A stretch of 64,000 nucleotides of DNA from Blasia pusilla (taxonomy: Eukaryota). Location of the stretch: assembly GCA_050084515.1 (NCBI GenBank), contig CM114271.1:33852001-33916000 (forward strand). The letters are read 5' to 3'. Below the pieces are notes generated by a model that made no database searches, was not told the DNA's origin, and worked only from the letters and a program-made list of their open reading frames with translations. Shown here one piece after another: positions 27,884 through 63,130 of this stretch. Position numbers and translations under genes: made by a program. Within the stretch, counting starts at the first letter, position 1. Every line of letters begins with the position of its first letter.

Positions 27884-29467
27884 TCAAAGTAGATCGAATC
27901 CGTTGATCAACTCGATTCTCACTCTTCCCAGAGTCCCTGAGCCCAGAGACACGGCCGGGTAATAAACTCCCTCTGGCAAATTGCTCCAGGCAACTCCAAA
28001 CTTCTGCCCGTCTATGGTGTAGGAACAAGTATGTTCGAACATGTCCAGCTGCACTCGGACCCGGGCACCTTGGTATCCAAACTTCTTGCCATACGGCATC
28101 CATGGAAAACCAAGAACATTGCACTGGTTGATGAGAGTTCCACGATCGTCCATCCTCAAAGCCCATCCTGTGGGTTGTTGGGTCAAGCTGGCACCATTGA
28201 AATTGGGCTTCCCCGAATGCAAACTGCTGACCTTGTAAAGGCCCACCTCACAGAACTGGTAGCAGAGTTCTTCGATCACGATATCCCACTCGTAGACACC
28301 ATAGGGCTGGAAGATGGCATTGGAAGCTCTGGCGAAGCCATTGCCCAAATCGCACTTTTCGATGACGGATCGATCTCTCCCGATCCTGTAGAAACTGGCA
28401 TGAGCTCCGTCCTCCCATGTGCCCTTCGCAACCCTCGGCCTCTGCAGCGCATGGAACCGAAAAGCGTCCATGAGACTGGCGCAAGGAATGATGTCCAGGG
28501 GCTCTATGACCTTGATGAGAAGCTCAGGGTGGATGCGTCGCAGATCGACCATGGAAATCAAGCTCGCCACGGACGAGGCTATGTCGTCCCTCAGCTGCAT
28601 GAACTGATCGAACTGGGAGCCGGACTCGTCGGAGCACCCATCCTGCACGTCTTGCAGAGGAGACGAGAAATCCATATCCTGGGGATCGTTGAGCAGAAGG
28701 AGAGCCTTCTTGGCGTCTGGAAGGTACAGCCTCACGATCTCCTCCGCCTCCTCATCTGCAGAAGCTCTGCAGCTGCACCACAGAACGATCTGCCTGAAAC
28801 GGAGGTACTCACCCAGAGACAGAATCGGACTGCCCATGTCTTCGGGCTCCTTCTTCGTCTTCGACAGGAAGTACTGGAACGCCTTTTCGGACAGGTTTCG
28901 AAGATGCACGGGCTCCAGGCACTTGGAATTCAGAACCCTCACGAGCTCCAGAGGAATCACATCCATGGAGCTGCTGATGGCAGGGAAGTCCATGGCCACG
29001 GACAGATTGCTGGCGGCCACGGTCATGTCGATGCTCAGCTCGAAGGTGCCGTCCACCAGATACTCCCACACGATGTCCTCCAGGTTCTGCAGAATGAAGT
29101 ACCTCGCGGCGCTGATCACTTCGAACGCCTTCCTCCAGCTCAAGGGGGCGTGCTCCACCATCATGCCCGTGTACAGAAACTCCAGAATCGACAGCAGAAC
29201 GGGGGACGCGATTTTGGGGAGGGAGATTTCGGACTTGCGAGAATCGGCCTTTCCGGTCATGAGCAGGCCCTTGAGAACGGGGGACCTCGCGCACAGCAGA
29301 AGGCGGCAGGCGTGCACCCGATCCCCGTCTTCGCACAAGAAAATCACATCGCTGAAGTCCACATTGTTCAGCATCTTCCTCTGATCCGCAAGCAGATCTG
29401 CAGCTGCCTGCGTCTGCGCTTGCCCTGCCTTCTCCAGAAACCTCGCCTTCACGGATGGAGCTTCCAT
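27884..29467 (-). CDS. Intronless BTB/POZ - helical (BACK-like) - SPRY/B30.2 domain protein (putative CUL3 substrate adaptor)
   Basis: The frame is open from 27884 to 29923. BTB signature FSDVIFLCEDGDRVHACRLLLCARSPVLKGLL...ILEFLYTG; SPRY signature YEWDIVIE...LDMFEHTCSYTIDG...LPEGVYYPAVSL. Start placed at MEAPS (29467) because the upstream 152 codons are tandem-repeat low complexity. Confidence 0.88.
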   Translation of the reverse strand: MEAPSVKARFLEKAGQAQTQAAADLLADQRKMLNNVDFSDVIFLCEDGDRVHACRLLLCARSPVLKGLLMTGKADSRKSEISLPKIASPVLLSILEFLYTGMMVEHAPLSWRKAFEVISAARYFILQNLEDIVWEYLVDGTFELSIDMTVAASNLSVAMDFPAISSSMDVIPLELVRVLNSKCLEPVHLRNLSEKAFQYFLSKTKKEPEDMGSPILSLGEYLRFRQIVLWCSCRASADEEAEEIVRLYLPDAKKALLLLNDPQDMDFSSPLQDVQDGCSDESGSQFDQFMQLRDDIASSVASLISMVDLRRIHPELLIKVIEPLDIIPCASLMDAFRFHALQRPRVAKGTWEDGAHASFYRIGRDRSVIEKCDLGNGFARASNAIFQPYGVYEWDIVIEELCYQFCEVGLYKVSSLHSGKPNFNGASLTQQPTGWALRMDDRGTLINQCNVLGFPWMPYGKKFGYQGARVRVQLDMFEHTCSYTIDGQKFGVAWSNLPEGVYYPAVSLGSGTLGRVRIELINGFDLL

Positions 29468-29554
29468 GTTCGCCTTGCCCTGCCGCTCCACTCCTCGCCC
29501 ACCTCGGCCTTGGAACGGAATTCTGCTCGGTCGGTGCGATTTCTGTCGGGTTCG

Positions 29555-29830
29555 GGGGATGGGTCCCGAGGAGGCAGAGGAGGAGAGTGGGCGATGGAGG
29601 AGCCCGACAGAAGTGATTGTTCGGGTGCTGTGTGAAGAGGAGGTTTGTGTCTGCTTCGGGGGGATGGGTCTTGAGGAGGCAGAGCGGAGTGGGCGAGGGC
29701 GATGGAGCCCTAGAGAGGTGATTGTTGTTCGTTCGGGTGGTGTAGGGAAGAGATTCGTGTCTGGTTCTGTTGGGGATGGGTCCTGAGGAGGCAGAGGGGG
29801 AAGTGGGCGATGGAGCCCTAGGGAAGTGCT
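29555..29830. repeat. ~105-110-bp tandem repeat, 3 copies, upstream of the BTB gene start
   Basis: ggggatgggtc..gaggaggcagag...gggcgatggag near 29555, 29659 and 29771. Confidence 0.85.
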
Positions 29831-31713
29831 TGTTCGGGTGGTGCGAGGTGAGATTTGTGCGCGGTTTGCTTCATGGGGCCGGGACTTACTTGGCCCGAGC
29901 GAGAAAGGATAGACAGCATCCACCGAACTCTAGAGCGGGCTGCAGCCCCATCACCTGCTACATGCGAGTTCGAAATTCCATGCCTTGAAGGAGAGGGCGA
30001 TTTCCATTTCGGAAGAGACTGTCTTCGGAAATCTCGCTGCCATGCCTCTTGCAGCTCTCGAGTCGGTCGGACTATTCGAGGTCAGCTCGCTCATCCTTCT
30101 TTTCTCTCTCTCTGTCTCTTCTCCTCTTCTCTCCTCCTCTTTTCTTCTAGCCTAAGACGGACAGATTCGGTCAGACTATTCCTTCACTTCCCTCTCTCTC
30201 TGTTTGCTCCACTTCACTCCTAGAGCAGGACTGGCAGAGTCAAACTACTCCAGTGTAGCACTCCCACGCACACCTCCTTTCCTTCTTTTCTCTCTCTCTC
30301 TTTCTATCTATCTGTCTGTGCTTCACTTCTATCTGAAGAACAAACGAAGCCTATCCCAAGATAGATAGGCATGCTTCTCCACCCACGCCTTCATTCCTTC
30401 ATTCCTTCTTTTCTCTCTCTCTCTCTCTCTCTCTCTGTGGCAAGCACAAACATAGCCTACCTACAACAGCTCTGAGAGGCTTTCTCTCCAGCTCCAGCAC
30501 AGAACGACAGACAGCTTCAGGCACCGCCAATGCAGAACAGCCAAGCTACCCCGTCTCCCCACCCAGCAACCCAGAAATCCGGATACCCTTTGCTCCATCC
30601 CTTCTGACCTGCCTCCCCCTCTCACCCTCCTCCTCCTCCTCTTTCGACCACACGACTCTCAACGCACTGCCTCTATAGCCTCGCTCTCTCGTACGGCCCA
30701 TCGCATCGATGGGCTTTCCTCAGCCGCCTCCGATGAGTTGCTGACGCACTGAGATTCTGGCGAAAGTGGAGACGCATTCGGAGGGTGAGGTTGTTACGAT
30801 GAGCAGGAGTAGGAGGGGTGTTTCCCATGTCGAAGCGAGCGAGTCGAGGGAAGAGCGCACTCTGATCCTCCCTGATATCAGAGCCTTCTGATCCTCCCTG
30901 ATTGCAGGGCCTTCTTGGCCTCGAGCTACTTGTTCGTGGGGTTGCGAGATCGTCGGAAGAGGCCTGTCTGATGATTCCTGATACTAGATAGAGCCTTTTT
31001 GGCCTCGAGGCCTCCTGGTGGGGTTGTGAGATCCGTGGAATAGTGTACTTTGATGCCTTTTGAGATGGGAGGCATCGACGACCTCTTCGTTCATCGATGG
31101 TTTGCTCGAGCAAAGATCGATCGATGGCGCTCTCCTGATCTCTTGGTGGATCGAACTTGGAGGGTTTGTCGGTTGTTCGTGGCGAATCTCAGCCACAATG
31201 CTCGGGTGGGTATTGGCTGGGCGAGTTTGAGTAGTTGCAACCAAGTCGCGTGGAATCGTCTCGGCATGGGAAGGACAATAGTTTCGTTCCCCAGTAGGTC
31301 GATTACCTCGAATCTATGTCAAGCGCATGAATGGAACTTCGGTGAGCTCCCACTCTCTGGCTCAGTTCCTCTGAAGGTCTGCAGAGGGATTGGATAATTT
31401 GCAGAAAGGGAGTGTTGGCTCGATTTGCCTACTATGTCCTATCATGGACGATCGAATCGAGACAATTCGGCTTCTGCTTATTCTCATCATCTGGACCGAA
31501 ATTTCGCGAACTGCTGGAGAGAACTCCCAGAAATGGACATGGGAACTTGCCATGTTTGTCGTCAGCTGAAGAGATCGAATTGTAGGTGCTGAAACCCATA
31601 GCAATCCAATTTTTCTACATATCAAAGAGCTCACTTTACAGCAAAAGCAGCAGAGGCGACTGTAGCGTTTCATCTTTCTTCGTAGCATCTACCAAGAATA
31701 TTAGGAGACGCTG

Positions 31714-51309: not shown

Positions 51310-51791
51310 ATTGCTTGATGAGACAAGTAGAGAAGACTACAAGCGACAGACGCAGAGATAAGGATTCGGCTTCAAGGGGAACCCCAAAAGTGCTCTAGAG
51401 AGTAGTGACGGAGTTTGGTGATGTCGATCATAACATAGAGGTCATCCTTGAATCTCAACCACCTTCAAAGATCCCATACATATTGAATCAAGAAGAACTT
51501 GTTGAGCTGAAAAGAGAGTTGAGTGAGCTCTTAGAGAAGGGCTACATCGGAACTAGCAAGTCACCTTATGGAGCGCTTCTCGTCTTTGTGAAGAAGAAGG
51601 ATGGGAAGATGAGACTCTGTGTTGATTACCGTGCCCGGAATAAAGTGACGGTGAGAAAAAATTACCCTCTTCTGAGGATTGATGATCTCTTCCATAGATT
51701 ATCAAGAACAAAGTACTTCAGTAGGATTGACTTGACGTAAGGATATTACCACATTCAGATTGCCGAAGCGGATGTGGAGAAGACTGTGTGT
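51310..51791 (+). mobile_element. Older Ty3/gypsy element (host): RT N-terminal part
   Basis: VDHNIEV...[51 protein letters not shown]...KYFSRIDL...QIAEADVEKTVC. Confidence 0.92.
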
Positions 51792-52023
51792 ACTCTGTTT
51801 GCTTGGCAGGTCACATACGTTTTCACATATTGAGCAACATCCTCTTTCATGTTGGGCCAGAAGAACCTCTTAATTAGAAAAGCTAGTGTGGATTTCTCCC
51901 CTTTATGTCCTACCAAGTGTCTGTCATGACATTCTACTAACATATTGGTCCGCAACGTGCATTCGCCCACATATATCCTGCTATGCTTAAACCTTACTAA
52001 GCCATGCCTCAAACTTATGTTGG
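51792..52023 (-). mobile_element. Host Ty3/gypsy: integrase zinc-binding (HHCC) part, inverted
   Basis: CHDRHLVGHKG...FFWPNMKEDVAQYVKTYVTCQANRV on minus. Confidence 0.88.
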
Positions 52024-55000
52024 TGTCACGTATTTTAGGATAGATCAGTGAGATCTAGTAGAGCGCCTTCGTGAGTAGTTGACGACATGCTCAATAGGTT
52101 GAGGATGACCTATTGAGGCCCCGGGAAACCTGAGAGACGAGGTTTCCCTTTCGTTTCGGCTCATTTGGAGCCATATTGAAGAACTTACTATTTTAGGTAA
52201 GTATCATTTTGAGTATATGGTCGACTTCATATTTTTGGTAATGGCCCTTGAACTCCTACATCAGGTCAAGAGCCAAGGAGGTGACTTGGGAGAATAGATT
52301 ACCATGGAGAGAGCTTGGGAGAGGGGAAGGGTATACCTCAAGGAGAGAGAGCTTGAGAGCTCCTTCTCTCTTTGTTGAACCTCTTGGCATGAGGCGGCGG
52401 AACTATGGTCTTGCTTGCCTTGTGTGTGTAACCCAAGCCTCTCATTAGGAGAGTGGGTTTGGTTTGACATTGAGAGAGACATGTGAGAGTGCACACATGT
52501 GAGAACTATGGTGTTGTGAGAGAATGAGAGAATGACAAAGTGAGAGAGCTTCATGGGGAAGTTCGCTGGCACTCGCTATTTTTGCAAGTTGGGGATCGTG
52601 TTCCCCGTTCAGCGGCTCATGGGAGTGCTCACTAGAGCAAGGGCTGATTTGATTGTTCTTTGTATTTGCCGATTTTCCGTGTGGAAGAGTGGCGCGCGGA
52701 AGCATTGCCCAATTTCTGATAGGGATTGATTATGGGGGCTCGTTGCCCCATGCCGGTGCTTTCGAGAGCACCATGCAGCTTGCTGATTTGTATTTTTATA
52801 GGTTTTACATTTTGGTTGGGAGAAATCGGCGCAGAAGTGCTGCCGAATTTTTTGTAGGAGAAAGAGACATTGGGCTTTACGACAGTACCCATAAATTTTT
52901 ACTCAAATGTCCAATTCAAATAGTTTTTGACATTGTTGTAGATGGTGAAGCTGTGCAACAAATGGTGCGCAATTTGGAGTTGTGAGTAAGAAGTTATGGT
53001 CAATCTTGAAAAAATGCCATTGCTAGGAAATTTTTTGGGTTAAATTGTTCAAATCCTAAACCAGCCGTCGCCTTCATAGTCACCGGTCACCGGTCAACTC
53101 TCTTTCTCTCACCGTCAACGTTTCACCGTCCACCGGCCACCGTCGGCCGTTGCTGTTGCCCAGCGTTGCTTAGAGCCACATTCGGCCGTTGTCCACCCTT
53201 TGGTTGCCATTGCGCCATTACGAAGTGGAGGGTCTTCCATGACGTTCTTTGATTCTCTGACTTGCGTCGGCACCACGTACTTTATTTTGGCCGCCACCAT
53301 CATCGAAGTTTCATCGTAAACCAGTGACGCCAGATGAACTCTCGTTATGATGTTTGAGTTTTGATTTCATGCTGCTATGTTGTGATTGATAGCCACTCGA
53401 CAACGATCGAGTACCATGCCCTGATACTCGTAGCCCCAACCCGCCGCCGATTGCCGCGCCGTGCCGCTCGTGGGCGCACCGCACCGTCTCGATTGCAGAG
53501 TCGCACTGTCATTGTGGAGCAGAGTGTGGGCTTATTGTTGATTGAGGAGGGTATGCCGCCGAGTGCCGCATCCCACCATCGAGGGTCGTGTTGTTCGTAG
53601 CCGTTCCGTGCCGCGTGCAACGCCGCACCGTTCCGCTGGAACCGCACTGTCTATCGAGGAGTTTTGAGCAGCGTCATTCCGGGAGGAGTATGACTTGCTG
53701 ATTGGAGGATTGTCTCCACGACCGAGGTTGGGGTTGAGATTTTTAGTTGGATAGGAGCGACATCGACATGTGATCAGGTTACCCATTCTGGTCCTTTACT
53801 CTGCACGCGTGAGGGATTCTGGGATTTGGGTAGTTTATTTGGGGATATTGGGTTGTGTGGATGCGGAGAGCATCATTTAAGTATGTGGTTTAGGGGACAT
53901 AGACCTGTGTGGGATGTCCGGAGTTGAGGGTAGGTTGTCGATGAGATGATAGTCTGGTCAATTTGCTGCACCACGCCGCTTATTGCTGCACGTTATACGT
54001 CTCGGGGAGGGAGAGTGTAGATCGACTCCCGTATGTTTGGGATGAATGATTGAGGGATTACTCACAAGGTTGAGAGTGATCGTGTGAGAGGGGCACGAGG
54101 GTCATCACCGCGTCCTTTCATAATTTTGAGAGGCGAGGTAGTGGACCTTAGAGTAGCTCTGGAGGGTTTACCCGGAGTGGTGCGAGGTTTCGAGGGTCTC
54201 TACGTGAGAGATCACCTCGATCTCCTTCTGTGTCATCTTCAGACGAGGGGGAGTGTGTAGAGGAGTTTATGAGCACATCGCCACACATTATGAGTGGTCC
54301 TACTAGTTGGGCGTTGTCATATAGTAAAATCAGCTAGTGTGTAAACTCCTTCCTCGTTAAGTGTTAGATAGAGTTTTATTAGTATTAAGTAAATTAGCTT
54401 AGGAAAAGGAAATCCCCATGTTTAAACCTCTTCATGGTGCCTCTTTTATATGGGCCCAACTTTAGAAAAGAGCTAATAAATAAAAGATGACTTTATAAAA
54501 GTAAAGTAGTGAGGTTGGTGCTTTAATGAAAACCAAAAGTAAGCTTGGTTGGTGGCTAGGTTAGTTGGGGTAATTTGGAAAATATCAAGTAGGTAAAAGA
54601 GGATATTTTGGAAGAGATAAGAGGAAATCTACTTGTGTCAAAATGTGATTGGCTAAGCCTTGAGAGGAAGTCATGTGGCACAAGATAAGATTAACTCTAT
54701 TTCGTACTCTTGTAGGTCTCTTGTGAGTATATAAAGAGGAGGGATCTTCAAGGTCCATCACCTTCTATTCCACATCTTGAGTCTTCCGTGTCACTCTTGA
54801 GTGTATGACTTTGGGATTGCTTGCTCTTCCAATGAGAGTGGATCACCCCTCTTGGGAGAGTAACTTGACCATGGTCTGTTCTTCGAGAGGTTTCTAGAGT
54901 GTGGTGTGTGTGTGGAGATGAGAGGTTTGTCACCTTAGAGGAGTTTAGTCATACTAAAATAGTGAATATTTTGGCTTGTTACTTCCCCAATGAGAGTGGA

Positions 55001-55599
55001 TTACCCCTCTTGGGAGAATAACTCCGCCAAAACCCATTCTTAAGGAGAGTAGAGAATGTGTGTCAAGCATGGATAGGGGTGGAACACGAGTTGTGCCCGA
55101 CTTTCCTTTCCTTAATCCATACCATGTCAAGATACTCTTTGTAGATAGGCACTGGTTCACTCGCTATTTAGTTTATCATTTTGGGGAGGCGTTCATGAAC
55201 CACGTCATTCAATCTCCAACTCCGATGATCCTTCCTATTGTCACATATGGAAGGATATGGGATTGTACTTTATATGTCCTTTTATAGCAATCCATGGACG
55301 TTAATAGGCCTGCTCAAGTAGGGTTTAATACTAACTGTGCTATCTTCCTCTTATACAAGCGTAAAATAGTCTATAGGGATTTTATAGTTAGGAATTTTGG
55401 GTTCCGATGTTACGAAAAAATGATCGCCTCGGCACTTCCATTTGTGATACCTGTTGTGAGAGAATGGAGAGTATACATAATAATTTTATATTGAAAAAGG
55501 AGATCTTCTCAGAGAATTCATCTTGCATCGACCGCGTCTGCCGCAGCTAGAAGGCCTGCCCTTACTCGAAGAAAGGCTCTCAACATGATAGCGTAAGAG

Positions 55600-56690
55600 A
55601 TGGACGACCGGGATAGAGGACCGCGTAGGTTTTCAGGTGCAGTAGGCACGATTGAGTTGCACGATTTCATAGCAGAGTTTAGGAGTTGGTGCGACTCCCA
55701 GCGGGCCAGGAACTCTAGAGAGTTCAACCCATTTACAACATGGAATGATATGTTCCAACATTTAGAGAGGGCGCCCATGGACTATTACCATGAGTTCTCT
55801 CAGAGATATGCACGTGAGATCGAGGCATGGAGGCTCTACTATGACCCACATTATGTGTCATGGACGGAGCCGTTCCCAGATGAGGAGGAGGAGTCAGGAG
55901 AGGCTACTTCCTCTTCCACTAGTGACGTTTTAGGAGGGGTCACTCACACGGGAGTAGTTGCACCGTCTAGTCAGGTTCGTCCAAGGTTCAACCTTGTGGT
56001 TGAGTTCTTTGCTGAGTTGAGGGCGAGCTACCAGGAGGTACAGACGGAGAAGTTGCGGAGCATCCACGATTTCTAGAGGCTCCCGGGTGAGAGTTTGCGT
56101 GAGGCTTACACTCGCTTGCGCCGGTTGATCAACGTCACTCAGGGGTGACAGAGGCTCAGGCTATCCAGTCATGGTACGCGATGCTGGACCGGACCCTGCG
56201 GACACGGGTGCGGGAAGGGGTGCTTCTTATGAACACCTCCCCTACATTGAGAGATGTTTTTAGGACCACCGAGAACATTGAGCGCAACATGGCGGAGGAG
56301 AGCGTAGCCACCATGGGTTCTGGGCGAGAGCAGTCACGATTGCGTGTAGTATCTGTACAGCAACGTGGACTCCGAGATAGGTCGACTGTGGCACCACGAG
56401 CTCAGGGAGAATACCAAGGGGGCGTGCCACAGAGACATGCGCTTTCATATGGGGCTCAACAAGAGCCGCCTACTATTACTTGTTGGTCATGTGATGGAGC
56501 CCATCATCAGCGCGATTGCACTCATCAAGGTTATGGACGTGTGCCTCAGCATGGAGGAGGAGATGGTGCTGCGCCAAGAGGTTATCAGTGTGACTATTTT
56601 CAGAGGTATGGTCATACACACGCGAGGTGTTTCAATTTACATCCTGAGTGACGTCCGGATCGAGGGCCACAAAGGGCACCAGAGCGAGTA
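55600..56690 (+). pseudogene. gag of the DNMT-carrying element, with two zinc knuckles
   Basis: PRRFSG...F*RLPGESLREAYTRLRRL (major homology region-like); CWSCDGAHHQRDC and CDYFQRYGHTHARC; stops and frameshifts present. Confidence 0.8.
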
Positions 56691-57545
56691 GCCGATCCGG
56701 ATGGGCCTAGAGATCGTGCACCAGGTGGTCCCGTTGGGGGACGAGGAGCTAGAGTTGCTCGACAGGGTGGTGGAGCTTCCCATGGAGGAGGTAGAGTACC
56801 ACCACCTAGATGTGCCGAGGGCCACGCCGGACGTGAGGCTGGGATGGTTGTTCAGATACAGCAGCTACAAGAGCATATTGCCGCTATGGCATTGAGGTTA
56901 CCCGATGTCGGATCTGTGGCATCGACATCATATGGAGCAACCAGAGATCTGGAGGATCCTTCTTGGATCTGTGGGGTTGCCATGATGGAGGCCGCCGCAG
57001 TTGTGACGCGTGGAGCAGCCGCAGAGTTGGATCCACAGCGAGGGAAAGCCAGGAAACAGACTAGGCTTCCTCAGTCTTTCACGTTGTCCGAGGCGATGAG
57101 GATCCCATCGATGGGTCCTGATCTGAGTTCCTGGAGAGTTTGGTGATATTTTTGGTATGCAGGCACGGAGGGCGATGGGAGAAGCAAGTACGAAGACTCC
57201 TATTGTTGATGCTAAGGAGAGGCATGTGTCGAGCACGTTGTTGTGTACCGCACTCCTTTATGTTCTGCTTTAGATGTTATGATGTTGGGGGGTATGCCGG
57301 CCGAGGCTTTTTGGCTGGCCGCTTCACTATGTGAGCGCGGAGTTGGAGTTCCTGCATCACGTTCAGAGGTGATTCCAAAGGAGGTGATGGACTTGCCCTT
57401 GGGGCGGATGCTCGGGCCGTCCACGTTAGTGTCATGGCAGGTTGCCACTTCTAGGATGGCGGAGATGCCCGCTAGACACGCGATAGAGCGTGCCATGGCT
57501 TCTCCTGGTGTTGTGTTTCTGGATAATTGAGGAGAGGTCTTATAC

Positions 57546-57900
57546 TTGGTGAGTCCCGCAAGTAGAGCTTTTAGTCCGCAGCGCGTCTTGTTGGATTCAA
57601 GAGCGCAACTCCTGATGTTGGGAAAAGCGTCATTCAGAGGATTGGGCTTGACGAGAGCCGATGTGGAGCGTTGTCCATTCCGGATACAGACATCCTTGGG
57701 TAGAGCGAGTACCACACAGTATATCACCAGGAGGTCGTGGTGAGGATTCGCCCAGGACATCCTACAGATGAGTCCGTGGTGCAAGCGAAGGCGATAGTGA
57801 CTGATGCAGAGTCCTACGACATCTTGGTTGGTGGAGCAGTGTTATACCCGATGGGGTTTTCCCTGAATTACTGGGAGGATTGAGCCACCTACAGACCAGG
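57546..57900 (+). pseudogene. Retroviral-type aspartic protease remnant
   Basis: RVLLDSRAQ (degenerate LLDSGA) and downstream YDILVG. Confidence 0.7.
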
Positions 57901-58289
57901 ATGGCACTCATGTGATGGGCGCCTTAGCTCATTACCAGTTCGATTCACAGGTGTAGTGATCGAGCAACGGCCATGAGAGATGGCGACCTAAGCAGCATTC
58001 AGCAGTGCCATTACTTGGCCTAGTGATTTGATTGAGGGACATGTCTATGCAGAGGATATTCCATTTCTATGGAGAGGAGTGTTATGGTAGCCGCATCATT
58101 CCGTGGAGGAGAGGTGCCATTGTGGGGCTCGACTGAGGAGCTTTGACGATTGGCAGATGAGCATGTGCAGACCGCATGGAGCGAGGCGTTTGCACCGAAG
58201 CTTGACGGGTCTGAGGAACCCAAGGTAGCATGGAGTGTTACGATGACACCCTTGGATACCACACCCATTGTGTGGTGTATCCCGGAGGA

Positions 58290-58868
58290 GGGTATTCAAG
58301 TGTTCGATCTCTTTGGAGGGATTAGCACCAGGTTAGCTGTTGTTTTGCAGGTAGGAGTGCGAGTGCAGCATGCAGTAGTACATGTATGTGGAGAGTGATG
58401 ATGTTGCGAGGCGCATCTCACTACGATATGTGGCGCAGTTACGCCTACGTTTTCCCGACTTATTGTTTGCGTCCGCGATACAGGGGTACCAGAGTTCCCT
58501 ACCGAGGGATATTTTGTTGCTGGGGGCGCAAGATTTAGACCGATTAGGCACCATTGATTTGGTCATTGCCGGTTGGCCATGTCAAGGCCAATCGTATGTT
58601 GGACGAGGCAGCGAGCTGGCTGACACTCGGTCCAGGTTATTTTGGGAGATGTTGAGGGTCTTACGGTAGTTGTAGGAGCACCAGTCTCATTCTCCAGCCT
58701 ATATTCTGGAGAATGTGCTGATCTTAGGAGACTCTAGGTTACGGGTGGTGATGAGTGCTCATCAGGTGCGTGCCTGGATCGGACCAGCAGTGTTCTTAGA
58801 TGCAGCAAGTGTAGGTTCTAGAGCCCATCGCCCGCGTCTATGGTGGACCAACTTAGTGCCCCATGCGG
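58290..58868 (+). pseudogene. C5 DNA cytosine methyltransferase domain (DNMT3-like), C-terminally truncated
   Basis: Motif I VFDLFGGIS (~58300-58326); motif II YVE; motif IV DLVIAGWPCQG (GWPCQG at 58571-58588); RSRLFWE; motif VI YILENV (ENV at 58709-58717); motif VIII AHRPRLWWTNL (RPRLWWTN at 58829-58852). One frameshift near 58370 and TAG stops at 58667 and 58673. Confidence 0.9.
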
Positions 58869-59505
58869 TATGAGGGTGAGTGCTTGGCTGCAGTGTGGGT
58901 TGTCGCGTATTTCAGGTGTTACTTATTCGGAAACCCCTTTATCATCATCACTGATCATCAACCACTGAAGTGGTTGATGTAGTCCGACAAGCTTACAGGG
59001 AAGCTTGCAAGATGGGCTCTGTTGTTGCAAGAGTATGATTTTCAGGTGGTACATAGACGTGGGATGCTCAACCAGGATGCAGATGGATTGAGTCGTAACC
59101 CATGCCCGAGTCAGCGAGATGCAACTGGAGCTCTGTGGCATGGAGAGAGTGATGAGGAGTCAGTGCCAGGATGGCACACGTCAGCCTATTTAGGCATGTT
59201 GGCTATGGAGAGCCGGAGTGTGGAGACTTCGATGGCAAGGTCTAGTGGAAAGTCCTTGGATCCCGAGGCCAGTGAGGAGACCACATGTGGCTGAGATATT
59301 CATGATGATGGAGTAGTCTTGGAGTACCTTCGTACTGGTAGCGTTGCAAGCATCGTGGGTGCTAGAGAGCAGGATCGGATCCTACATCGGGCCAGACGGT
59401 TCCGTTGGGAGGGGACACGTGTTTTGAGGGTTTAGGAGGATGGTAGAGTACGCGTAGTGCCACATCCTTTGCATAGAGCACGACTAGTGCAGCATGCCCA
59501 TGAGG
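58869..59505 (+). pseudogene. Ty3/gypsy RNase H C-terminal part and start of integrase zinc-binding domain
   Basis: YEGECLAAVW...ITDHQPLKWL...[34 protein letters not shown], then RVVPHP...LVQHAHE. Confidence 0.88.
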
Positions 59506-60850
59506 TGTCGTGCACCTACTCTCCTTGAACGTTAATCTTGTTTGTTGCGGAAGCGTGCGTTCAGTAGGTCACGCTCTCAACGCTGATCTGCATCCAAACA
59601 CGCACTTCGGTTAGTCGGGTCTTGGATCAATCAGCGGGAGTACTTTCCGAGTTCTCGTCTCGGACTCTCTCTTCAAGCTCAACCTTCCTAGTTTCGCGGT
59701 TTCCAACACGGGCAAGTCTCGAAAGACTTGGGGAGACTTTACAGTCGGTTCGGGAACTGAAACGGCGTTTCGCGCCTAGCGGTTCCAACTGTCCGATGAA
59801 CATCCAATGAGTTCCTCACCAAGACTCACACGAAGTGAATCTCGGGTTGGAATCCAAGTGTGGCGTACAAAGTCCACTCCCTTGGATCAGGTTTGGGTTT
59901 CGGGTTTCCGCGCCAAACTCCCGTTTCATCACGTGCCTCTGAAACGCCGTTTGGCGCCCAAAGTGGGGTTTCGTTTCCCGAGACATCTCAGAGAAGGTAC
60001 TCCCCTTACTAGTACTTCTGGGGATCTCGGGGCCCCTACATTTAGGGGAAAGACACCGGGCCCCTCCAATTGGCCCTCAACCCGATTGCTCTCTGAATCG
60101 TTTTCGGCCAATATCTCAGCCTGTACTTATGCGTTTGCTGAGATCTTTAATGCGTTGGAAGCGTCTTGAGATCAGCTTTCCAACGCGCCCTTACTTGTCT
60201 CAAACGCATCTCAGAGCTCAACGTTATGGTCCTAAACACAGTCAGATTCTCCCAAACGCTAGTCATGTTCCGAACTGGTTCTCACCTCTTTGGCAACCAA
60301 CCTCCAAGACTCAACTCATCTCAAGTCTCGGCTCGCGTTTGGTTTAGGTTTCCTGGTCGCGACCATTAACGCATGAAACGCACAACTCTGTTCCGCATTT
60401 CGTCTCTTAGACTTTTCCAAGAGACTCTTCCAAACGCCTCTCCAAAGCGCAAACCTCGCGGCGTGAGTTCCTTTGAGTTCTGATGTTTCGCTTGGCGCGT
60501 ATTTGGTGTTGTTTGGTTATGAGGGTCGCGACACTCACCCCTCCTTAGAAGGTTGATGTCCTCATCAACGCAAACCTTATTGATGTTAAGTTCTGGGAAG
60601 CCGACCCCTTAACACAGAATCGCGTTCTGGTAGCTAACCCGCAATTCCTCTTTTTGGCTTTAGTCTTAGGTTTGTCGCTTATAAAGACTTAGACTTATTA
60701 GCTTGTGCTTTCTGATGAGCCTAGACTAGTTCTACCAAACTAATCTAACTATCAAAATAAGCTCACTAAGTCTGCAACCTAACACTTCACTCACTATTTG
60801 TAAACAACCGCCTGTCTACCTAGCCAACTCGTACCTAGCCAACCCCGTGT
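59506..60850 (-). mobile_element. Nested third gypsy-type fragment: 1028-bp LTR (59506-60533), PPT and 3' internal sequence
   Basis: On minus the PPT aaggagggggtgag is followed by TGTCGCG...CACGACA; it interrupts the integrase right after HAHE. Confidence 0.75.
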
Positions 60851-60854
60851 TCTC

Positions 60855-61118
60855 TTGTTGGAGGGACGCGATGGTATGGTATGGAAGGACCATGTGCGTA
60901 ATTGTGCGCCATGTCACCTTCCTAACATTGATGGTACAGTAGATCCAAGCTTAGCAGTAGTTCCTGCAGGCTTGCGTTGTATGTTGTGTGGTTTTGCTCG
61001 TGGTGCGGCCACGATGCTAGTCTGTGATGGATGTTCGAGAGGTTGGCATATGGCATGTCTGACGCCACCTCTCACTAGGGTTCCTCTGAGACAATGGATG
61101 TGTCCGAGATGTACATAG
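60855..61118 (+). pseudogene. Integrase C-terminal tail fused to a PHD finger
   Basis: LEGRDG..WKDHVRNCAPCHLP followed by CMLC...MLVCDGCSRGWHMACLTPPL..VP...WMCPRC (C4HC3), then a stop ~180 bp before the PPT. Confidence 0.88.
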
Positions 61119-61434
61119 AGGAGATACTAGGTAGATTTTGATTCTGACTTTTTTTGTGACATGGATGACATGAAGGCGACTAACGATGGGGCCACATGAG
61201 CACCCGGCCTTTCTGCTCTTAGAGTCCTAGAGATGTATGTCATGGTAGGTAGGGATAGATGGCTATCTGGAGTTAGAGGGACCTAACCACCAGCTTGGGG
61301 GGCAATTGGAGATATTTTAGTACTTCTTGTCTCGTTGTTTGGATGCCATGAGTTAGCATGGGATCGTGCGTGTTTGTGTGTGTGTTTGGTGACAGCGATG
61401 TATGTTGTGTAGCGATGTGTATGCGCACGACAAC

Positions 61435-62078
61435 TGTCACGTCTTTTAGGATAGATCGGTGAGATTTAGTAGAGCGCCTTCATGAGTAGTGGAGGACAGG
61501 CTCAGTAGGTCGAGGATGACCTGCTAAGGCCCCTGGAAACTAGAGAGACTAGGTTTCCCTTTCGTTTCGGCTCATTTGGAGCCATATTGAAGAACTTACT
61601 ATTTTAGATAATTACCATTTTGAGTATATGATCAACTTTCTATTTTTAATAAATGGCCCTTGACCTTCTACATCAGGTCAAAAGCCAAGGAGGTGACTTG
61701 GGAGAATAGGTTACCATGGAGAGAGCTTTGGGAAGGGGAGGGCTGTACCTCAAGGAGAGAGAGCTTGAGAGCTCATTCTCTCTTTGTTGAACCTCTTGGC
61801 ATAAGGCGGCGGAGCTATGGTCTTGCTTAGCTTGTGTGTGTAACCCAAGCCTCTCATTAGGAGAGTAGGTTTGGTTTGACATTGAGAGAGACATGTGAGA
61901 GTGCACACATGTGAGAACTATGTGTTGTGAGAGAGATTGGATCTTACTTTATTGGAGATATTTTAGTACTTCTTGTCTCATTGTTTGGAGGCCATGAGTT
62001 AGCATGGGATCGTGCGTGTTTGTGTGTGTGTTCGGAGACAGCGATGTATGTTGTGTAGCGATGTGTATGCGCACGACA
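61435..62078 (+). repeat. 3' LTR of the DNMT-carrying element (644 bp)
   Basis: TG...CA ends; the first ~500 bp match 52024-52520 at roughly 90% by eye. Confidence 0.8.
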
Positions 62079-63130
62079 TTGGCCACCTTCTCCTCCTGCT
62101 TCAACTTCTTTAGGTACTCGCTTGTTTGGGTGTCCTTCATGTATCCTTCACAAATACTTCTCTCCAGATCTGTTTCCTTACGGAAACATTGCTCTCAAGA
62201 CTTGTGTGGTCGATGGCATGTCCTCATCCCTACGATTCAACGCATCTAGAATGACATTATCCTTCCCTAGCTTGTGGATTAATTACACATTCATTAACAC
62301 CAAGTATCATGCCATCACAGTTGTTTCGGTGTCACTTGATCATGGGTCTCAAAATACTTGAGTGATACATTATCGGTGAATACTCGAGTCGTGTGAAGTC
62401 CCTAATAGTGACACCACTTGCTCAAGAAATGGACCACCGTGAACAACTCTTTCTCATGAGTGGGCCACCTCCGTTTAGTGTCACTAAGCTTCTTGCTCTC
62501 GTACGCTACAGGTCTCCCTTCCTGTACCAACATCCTTGCGATGGTGAAATCACTAGCATTAGTATGCACCTCAAAGCGGTTTTCAAACTGTGGCAGCTTT
62601 AGAACTGGCTCCTATGATAGGATCTTCTTGACTCGATTGAATGCCTCATTCACTTCTTGGGTTTAGGTTGTGTTAGCAAACTTGGCGGTCCAATCAATGA
62701 GTGGTCTCACTATTCCCAAAAAGTTCCTTACATAAGTTCAGTAAAATTGAAGTGCGCCAATGAACCTCCTCATTCCCTTCATTGTAGAAGGTGGCTTCCA
62801 CTTGGCGATCGCTTTCATCTTATCCATATTAGGACTAACTCCATGAGCGTTAACCACATGACCCAAGAACTTGATCTTGCGTAATCCCTACTCACTCTTT
62901 TCCATATTCCTATATAGCTTGTTTAGCCTTGGTTTCCACACCACCGCTCTCAAATGTCGAACGTGCTCCTCTTGTGACTTCGAATAGATAAGTTTGTCAT
63001 CAATGTAGATGATCACGTACTCATTTGTCTCCTCGTGAAAAATGGAGTTCATCAATGTGGGGAATGTTGGAGGCGCATTACATAGACCAAAAGGGCATCA
63101 CTAAAACTCAAACGAGCCATATCTCGTCCT
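62079..63130 (-). mobile_element. Host Ty3/gypsy: RT C-terminal part and RNase H, inverted
   Basis: Minus strand RTRYGSFEF..MPFGLCNAPPTF...IYIDD.LIYSKSQEEH..HL...KFLGHVV, continuing to EYLKKLKQEEKVA. Confidence 0.9.

Follow-up and report, generated by a model that had tools for sequence, protein, structure and literature searches.

A dead Ty3/gypsy element with a DNMT3-like methyltransferase inside Pol from the liverwort Blasia pusilla, and its abundant relatives

Two kinds of DNMT3-bearing retrotransposons have been described, namely KnitGypsy-Dnmt3 from Klebsormidium nitens and SymbioDIRS-Dnmt3 from Symbiodinium (de Mendoza et al., 2018; PMC5890265), whose DNMT acquisitions the authors hold to be independent. 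SymbioDIRS-Dnmt3 is the sole retrotransposon DNMT3 for which de novo CG methylation has been shown, in yeast, and the KnitGypsy-Dnmt3 DNMT is under purifying selection (PMC5890265). Here we describe a retroelement from a stretch of 64,000 nt of Blasia pusilla DNA (GCA_050084515.1, contig CM114271.1; henceforth "the window", in whose positions all coordinates are given). Delimited by direct repeats, it spans 52024-62078 on the plus strand (Table 1), and it is, with high confidence as regards its identity and layout only, a dead, rearranged Ty3/gypsy copy of the Gypsy-DNMT3 kind in a liverwort genome. The interest lies not in this copy itself but in its family, an abundant and transcribed one that also occurs in Marchantia, bears a PHD finger and has split repeats.

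An earlier note on this DNA had proposed a Ty3/gypsy element, bounded by a target duplication, with a cytosine methyltransferase inside pol and no remaining capacity to move. All of this stands: the borders at 52024 and 62078 are correct, with TTGG outside both ends; a three-frame reading combined with tblastn using relatives places the protease, a DNMT3-like domain and RNase H collinearly and without introns; and the copy has at least five frame changes, several stops, and has lost the reverse transcriptase and the integrase core. The note had also put methyltransferase motifs I, IV, VI and VIII in order on one strand between protease and RNase H (in standard nomenclature I is FxGxG, IV is PCQ, VI is ENV and VIII is RxR). 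Their places are as claimed, but motif I lies in a frame different from that of motifs IV-VIII, two in-frame stops follow motif IV, and only half of the domain is there. This region is damaged by a single frame change, near 58375, and by two TAG codons, at 58670 and 58676; the domain stops directly after motif VIII, where the frame enters RNase H, and the target-recognition region with motifs IX and X is absent. The order I-IV-VI-VIII is not rearranged, unlike that of plant DRM, and relatives keep motifs I to X. The Pfam search suggested in the earlier note recovered DNA_methylase (PF00145) in the open piece 58379-58669 (E 4.3e-8, 33.4 bits against a cutoff of 22); the remaining open DNMT pieces, 58147-58398 and 58676-58873, matched no Pfam family when scanned singly.

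A 164-residue DNMT query, with both TAG stops read as X, recovered 1569 representatives at E<=1e-3 from among 1.84 billion proteins, with 282 at <=1e-10 and 4 at <=1e-30. Among solved structures, the DNMT piece of the window copy found DNMT3A, 3C and 3B first (E 1.1e-6 to 8e-4) and M.HaeIII and DNMT2 later, and a full-length relative (P0184) matched DNMT3A at 1.3e-9, M.HaeIII at 4.7e-5 and a DRM chain at 2.2e-3, with DNMT1 not among the matches listed. By this measure, which is a ranking among solved chains and not a phylogeny, the domain is nearer DNMT3 than DNMT1, DNMT2, DRM or bacterial enzymes.

About 550 residues are gone at 58868/58869: the DNMT target-recognition region with motifs IX-X, the reverse transcriptase and the initial half of RNase H. 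The window copy has no reverse transcriptase between protease and RNase H. A front half alone, abruptly abutting RNase H, is what a chance fusion could leave, had a single gypsy element taken up part of a DNMT3 or DRM gene of its host, or landed beside a host DNMT pseudogene, in a juxtaposition private to this locus. Such a one-off capture is hardly tenable in view of the relatives and of the host's own reads. The protease-DNMT part is collinear with Marchantia proteins over gag, protease and DNMT, and also with Klebsormidium and Closterium polyproteins, and a scan of metagenome contigs yielded 130 relatives, of which 80 were kept. We further aligned about 1.97 billion letters of a host genomic run (~1% of the run) at >=90% likeness, with depths summed over both directions. 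Over the DNMT bins the depth is 528-687; for gag it is 600-1330, for RNase H about 1260 and for the PHD region about 1150, against 50 and 97 in the flanks. At the deletion joint, 648 DNA reads depart from the window sequence after 58869 and run on, and 910 arrive from elsewhere before 58868; at the edges of the stretch that replaces the integrase core, 641 diverge behind 59505 and 1088 before 60847. The depth over DNMT, the reads passing the joint and the other host copies with DNMT contradict the capture, and, because host reads run on at the breakpoints, both the loss of sequence behind motif VIII and that of the integrase core are private to the window copy or to a few copies. The half domain is the result of this private deletion, which took the remainder of the DNMT with the reverse transcriptase and half of RNase H. 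The DNMT segment is thus not a peculiarity of one copy that all others lack, since host reads and other bryophytes carry it; the earlier note would have taken such an absence, coupled with nesting of the segment within a host DNMT3 or DRM gene, as fatal to its proposal.

The same reads bear on abundance. Of the 65789 DNA reads aligned, 54155 show 90-95% likeness and 647 show >=99%; if all of the latter stem from the window locus, the single-copy depth is at most about 9, from which we infer a bracket of at least about 60 copy-equivalents of the DNMT, or hundreds if the genome is larger. Three stranded RNA runs contributed 2555, 2963 and 2849 reads, at about 10:1 in the sense orientation, with depths of 11-28 in the DNMT bins as against 63-83 for RNase H. 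Carry-over of DNA is an unlikely source of these reads, since RNA coverage all but vanishes in bins 59662-60774, where DNA reads reach a depth of 440-670. In RNA run X21, 52 reads continue past the deletion joint; therefore, transcripts with an unbroken DNMT exist. The family is accordingly abundant and sense-transcribed in the host.

With the closest published description being algal and many relatives metagenomic, the window might be thought to be algal or contaminant DNA that repeats the Klebsormidium case. The chance of this is negligible. A BTB/POZ gene at 27884-29929 on the minus strand, a single exon with one open frame of 681 residues, lies 22 kb from the element, and among seven matches its product shares 81% identity with a protein of Marchantia polymorpha (MPTK1_8g14270), 80% with a pair of proteins from Riccia and 69% with a Calypogeia protein. 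To judge by this neighbouring gene, the host belongs to the liverworts, and to those of the Marchantia kind, which narrows the seed-free land plant proposed in the earlier note. Moreover, the element is covered by reads, both genomic and RNA, from the labelled organism, and liverworts and a moss supply the nearest DNMT relatives, at 60-70% identity versus 35-45% for algal ones. These relatives come from a word-based search of longer proteins, with 60 matches at E<=1e-8; the 19 that are organism-named, at 57-67% identity to the window stretch, comprise 15 from Marchantia polymorpha, three from Calypogeia fissa and one from Sphagnum, and no vascular plant is found among them. Ten matches of low identity were considered as candidate host DNMT3 genes and rejected, nine being Closterium proteins and one a metagenome protein. 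In two air metagenome runs (X6, X11), 0.05-0.07 of the words in the DNMT stretch are present, which as it stands is evidence of nothing.

The relatives display the architecture from which the window copy has decayed. They carry the complete domain, including the target-recognition region and motifs I-X, and their pol order is that of protease (PR), reverse transcriptase (RT), RNase H (RH) and integrase (IN), with a DDE integrase (rve, Integrase_H2C2). Pfam recognises DNA_methylase in 11 of 13 library matches, with RT in 8 of the 13; among eight of the longer proteins, seven have the DNMT and two have RT and RNase H after it. The full layout anticipated by the earlier note, Gag-PR-DNMT-RT-RH-IN-PHD, is seen end to end in the metagenome loci L026 and L055, with a few frame changes each. 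Intact relatives encode one polyprotein composed of Gag (two CCHC knuckles), PR, a complete DNMT3-like methyltransferase, RT, RNase H, DDE integrase and PHD. The layout CCHC-PR-DNMT-RT-RH-IN occurs in a metagenome polyprotein of 2188 residues and in Closterium, and the 1575-residue Klebsormidium nitens protein KFL_009030040 (P0258), perhaps one of the published KnitGypsy-Dnmt3 copies, reads DNMT-RT-RH-IN in the order of the window family and scores 293 bits against the family profile. The layout RT-RH-DNMT-IN-PHD appears in P0019, P0028, P0054 and P0078, examples being a Scenedesmus 'pol' protein and several metagenome proteins; P0072 adds a G-patch domain. The DNMT module thus occupies two different pol positions in related elements.

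In a tree of 35 element DNMT parts, with no rows for host DNMT3, DRM, CMT or MET1, the window DNMT falls in a 15-row clade (support of 100 in the Shimodaira-Hasegawa-like approximate likelihood-ratio test, SH-aLRT) that unites seven rows from Marchantia, two from Calypogeia, one from Sphagnum, four from metagenomes and the window itself. The Marchantia polymorpha DNMT parts (P0177, P0180, P0196 and others), annotated as hypothetical proteins only, are nearly alike, with end branches of 0.007-0.07, which suggests a recent amplification in that species.

Compared with KnitGypsy-Dnmt3, the window family shares an intronless DNMT3-like domain with unrearranged motif order within a gypsy-type Pol frame, and repeats arranged as A-coding-B-A-B, 'as in DIRS', together with gypsy domains (PMC5890265). 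It differs in that the host is a land plant and not a charophyte, in a copy number apparently far above the 'fewer copies' reported for K. nitens (PMC5890265), and in a C-terminal PHD finger, the word PHD being absent from that paper, which likewise makes no mention of Marchantia or liverworts. SymbioDIRS-Dnmt3 also has a DNMT3-like domain in the Pol frame and A-coding-B-A-B repeats (PMC5890265), but it employs a tyrosine recombinase and makes no target duplication, in contrast to the DDE integrase (rve and Integrase_H2C2 in relatives) and 4-bp duplications of the window family; a DIRS-like identity is rejected on these two grounds, the repeat layout alone being shared. The accessible portions of two papers after 2018 mention only 'streptophytes', citing the 2018 work, and the full-text literature yielded no description of Gypsy-DNMT3 elements in a land plant, though supplementary trees of later papers may hold bryophyte copies; the gene identifiers of five Marchantia relatives are absent from searchable main texts. 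The earlier note suggested a possibly little-described lineage; the kind is already named in print as streptophyte Gypsy-DNMT3, which the present land-plant member extends.

What the domain does in open copies has to be weighed between two readings. It would probably be an active DNA cytosine-5 methyltransferase dependent on S-adenosylmethionine (SAM). Alternatively, the family could be real and its DNMT no longer methylate DNA, having been kept for binding nucleic acid or SAM, for action on RNA or as a polyprotein spacer, a reading that we consider rather unlikely. The loss of activity would accord with a motif X that reads GQAMD instead of the usual GN in bryophyte copies, with Pfam matches that span only profile positions ~47-158 of 324 in most relatives, and with a yeast test of the Klebsormidium domain that showed no methylation; the authors call that test inconclusive, and human DNMT3B failed in the same assay too (PMC5890265). 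Retained activity is favoured by the conservation of FGG, PCQ, ENV and RxR from chlorophyte to liverwort copies, with the motif IV cysteine among the invariant columns, and by ratios of nonsynonymous to synonymous substitution (dN/dS) of 0.2-0.4 on deep branches. These ratios were computed over 46 ungapped segments of 164 codons (the window and 45 loci), which represent the N-terminal half of the domain only, 925 of the 1035 pairs being computable. The median is 0.87 for 65 pairs with dS below 0.1, 0.57 for 784 pairs at dS 0.1-0.3, 0.39 for six pairs at 0.3-0.6, and 0.20 for 60 pairs above 1, where dS is saturated; for the window copy against its 45 relatives, one pair only is computable, owing to the saturation of dS. 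As far as these sequences go, the pattern is one of copies that decay freely once inserted and of constrained lineages that produce them. If the DNMT is indeed an active enzyme, then, being made next to the reverse transcriptase in the particle, it might act on the element's own new cDNA or on a fresh insertion, a proposal already present in the earlier note and made here tentatively.

The terminal repeats are split, as A-coding-B-A-B, and are not two equal long terminal repeats (LTRs): the 5' repeat of the window copy matches only the first 500 bases of a 644-base 3' repeat unit. The A1 of other host copies is about 20 bases longer at its end, these bases having been lost in the window copy. 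The A..B-A-B layout is found in the window and in three of 31 loci of >=9 kb (L026, L050, L055), and L079 contains a B-B pair; the majority of loci span less than the whole element. All four full cases share a purine block ahead of B1 that is conserved as DNA sequence, a B with the end GACA, an A that opens with TGTCA, and a spacer of 2-3 bases between B1 and A2; the outer ends of the element are inverted (TGTCA...GACA). Perfect 4-bp duplications flank the window copy (TTGG), L026 (AAGG) and L055 (TCTC); that of L050, whose 5' end is damaged, is uncertain. Furthermore, where B ends, 625 host DNA reads pass into sequence that differs from read to read (agreement 0.34), which makes B the 3' end of many insertions. 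The heavily rearranged state of the window copy could invite the view that its layout is chance debris of tandem or recombined LTR elements and no feature of replication. This is very improbable given that the same layout, purine block and short spacer recur in L026, L050 and L055, each with its own flanks and the first and last with their own 4-bp duplications, and that the repeat structure of KnitGypsy-Dnmt3 is described alike (PMC5890265). The A2-B2 linker (16, 1, 0 and 17 bases) was also considered as the junction of an end-joined circle; this was rejected, since the 16 bases also follow A1 in other host copies and are thus part of A. Between A1 and A2 there are 41 substitutions in 499 aligned bases, and between B1 and B2 four in 128, about 7% overall. 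At commonly used plant rates such a divergence corresponds to a few million years, though the host's rate may differ.

Taking the split layout as a genuine feature of the family, we compared it with the canonical traits of Ty3/gypsy elements: TG...CA ends and a short target duplication are present, two equal LTRs are not, and the purine block precedes B1 and not A2. A textbook LTR cycle does not explain these ends, because the purine tract would start plus-strand DNA at B while the integrated copy starts at A. Two candidate routes can be envisaged, one in which an RNA longer than the unit would be resolved by a DIRS-like bridging step, and another in which the integrase would use the internal CA-NN-TG joint.

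The C-terminal PHD finger (Pfam PF00628, 43 bits against a cutoff of 24) has as its nearest solved relatives those of CHD4, PHF12, KDM5A/B, KAT6A, DPF3, PHF21A, AIRE and UHRF1. We take many of these to be readers of unmodified H3K4. Like chromoviruses, the window family has a small histone-tail reader fused to the C-terminal end of the integrase; chromoviruses bear a chromodomain, whereas the window family has a PHD finger, with no chromodomain found. The introduction of a recent preprint (bioRxiv 10.64898/2026.05.21.726589) ascribes to chromodomains a role in targeting integration by chromatin state, and by analogy the PHD finger could perhaps steer the integrase or the methyltransferase to silent chromatin. 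The same preprint, in its accessible part, describes the EpiLTRs of Cymbomonas and Euglena, which resemble the window family as LTR retrotransposons that stack chromatin modules including a cytosine methyltransferase. The EpiLTR DNMT differs in that it groups beside DNMT4, occupies the 3' end of pol and is accompanied by an adenine methyltransferase and a chromodomain, and that part of the preprint itself sets EpiLTRs apart from 'streptophytes (Gypsy-DNMT3)'.

Drawing these strands together, one may read Gypsy-DNMT3 as an ancient streptophyte lineage that made the transition to land and that, in liverworts such as Marchantia polymorpha, remains abundant and transcribed. It would bring its own chromatin kit, with a DNMT3-like writer beside the reverse transcriptase and a PHD reader, probably of unmodified H3K4, on the integrase, to mark or choose landing sites; it would replicate in a non-textbook manner through longer-than-unit RNA from an A-int-PPT-B-A-B copy (int, internal region; PPT, polypurine tract), with the DDE integrase acting on side-by-side ends at the CA-NN-TG joint in the repeat unit. 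We offer this as a reading that is unlikely to hold in all its parts. Several observations weigh against the main explanation given above for the window copy and its family. The tree is one of element DNMTs only, and its Klebsormidium row sits in an unresolved fork with a chlorophyte-type clade, so that common descent with KnitGypsy-Dnmt3 is not established. Most relatives are degraded, an open frame of >500 residues around motif IV being present in only two of the 80 metagenome loci. The dN/dS among close pairs shows no constraint on the copies themselves, and the low value at depth depends on saturated dS. No Gypsy-DNMT3 has so far been shown to be active, the Klebsormidium domain included (PMC5890265). 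The CpG observed/expected ratio is 0.75 in the element, as compared with 0.75 in the BTB gene and 0.65 in the window, and thus bears no special mark of methylation. No primer-binding site of the tRNA type (TGG-type) was recognised after A1 in the window copy, L026, L050 or L055, and the window has no tRNA gene. The polypurine tract before B1 does not suit an ordinary LTR cycle in which A and B form the ends. Finally, the single-copy depth behind the copy number is uncalibrated, which leaves that number a bracket only.

The remaining parts of the window copy and its surroundings are given in Table 1. The 1.34-kb stretch in place of the integrase core is repetitive in host DNA and nearly lacking in RNA, and has no protein homology to the family and no second match inside the window. 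The insert nested in the leader starts with TGTCAT and ends with CATGATA; a solo A-B unit from some related family is its probable identity, given that this start resembles the family's repeat A. Many RNA molecules start at 54410 inside this insert in all three RNA runs (22, 45 and 31), which suggests a promoter within it that is directed towards gag. The element itself sits in the pol of a second, DNMT-less gypsy element on the minus strand; positions 51399-51740 on the plus strand are also readable as a reverse transcriptase fragment, so that at least two further gypsy pieces meet around it. The BTB gene is the sole clear host gene noticed in the 64 kb, the remaining window being repeat-rich in appearance.

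Table 1. Features of the window copy and of the gypsy element that surrounds it, in window positions
Feature	Position	Strand	Evidence or remark
Left target duplication TTGG (4 bp)	52020..52023	+	identical four bases after 62078
Repeat A1 (5' terminal repeat), starts TGTCAC	52024..52523	+	91.6% identical to 61435-61934
Leader between A1 and gag	52524..55614	+	gag homology starts 55615
Nested insert in leader, 1.28 kb, GCGT on both sides	54315..55590 (wider bounds 54311-55594)	+	265 host DNA reads skip 54311-55590; end sequences
gag, two CCHC knuckles (56481-56519, 56589-56630)	55615..57240	+	38-52% identity to Marchantia protein P0180; frame change near 56142
Aspartic protease region	57243..58063	+	LLDSRA 57588-57605, YDILVGG 57815-57835; frame change near 57710
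N-terminal half of DNMT3-like C5 cytosine methyltransferase	58069..58870	+	motifs I, IV, VI, VIII; Pfam; homology to relatives
Motif I, FGGIS	58312-58326	+	
Motif IV, GWPCQG (catalytic Cys)	58571-58588	+	
Motif VI, ENV	58709-58717	+	
Motif VIII, RPRLWWTN	58829-58852	+	
Deletion joint	58868..58869	+	P0064 residues 1159 and 1711 adjoin; host DNA reads diverge on both sides
C-terminal RNase H and lead-in to integrase zinc finger	58869..59505	+	TDHQPLKWL 58950-58976; 52% identity to P0183 residues 1043-1190
1.34-kb stretch in place of integrase core	59506..60846	+	host reads diverge at both edges
C-terminal PHD finger region of pol	60849..61112	+	CMLCG 60978, CPRC 61101; 44-48% identity to PHD ends of P0019 and P0231
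Polypurine-tract-like block ending in G run	61269..61304	+	directly before B1; same block before B1 in L026, L050, L055
Repeat B1, ends CGACA	61305..61432	+	96.9% identical to 61951-62078
Repeat A2	61435..61950	+	two bases after B1
Repeat B2, 3' end of element, ends CGACA	61951..62078	+	pairs with B1
Right target duplication TTGG (4 bp)	62079..62082	+	matches left copy
Surrounding gypsy element, reverse transcriptase and RNase H	63097-62402	-	
Surrounding gypsy element, integrase zinc finger	52054-51755	-	

Retrotransposons that encode their hosts' own class of silencing enzyme have been in print from one dinoflagellate and one charophyte alga. The Gypsy-DNMT3 kind is now seen in a liverwort, where it is abundant and transcribed, and its close relatives in Marchantia polymorpha, a species with good genetics, methylomes and transformation, would make testable what the enzyme does for its element. 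The reading of bryophyte DNMT counts and of DNMT3 trees is concerned as well, as element-borne copies can pass for host genes.

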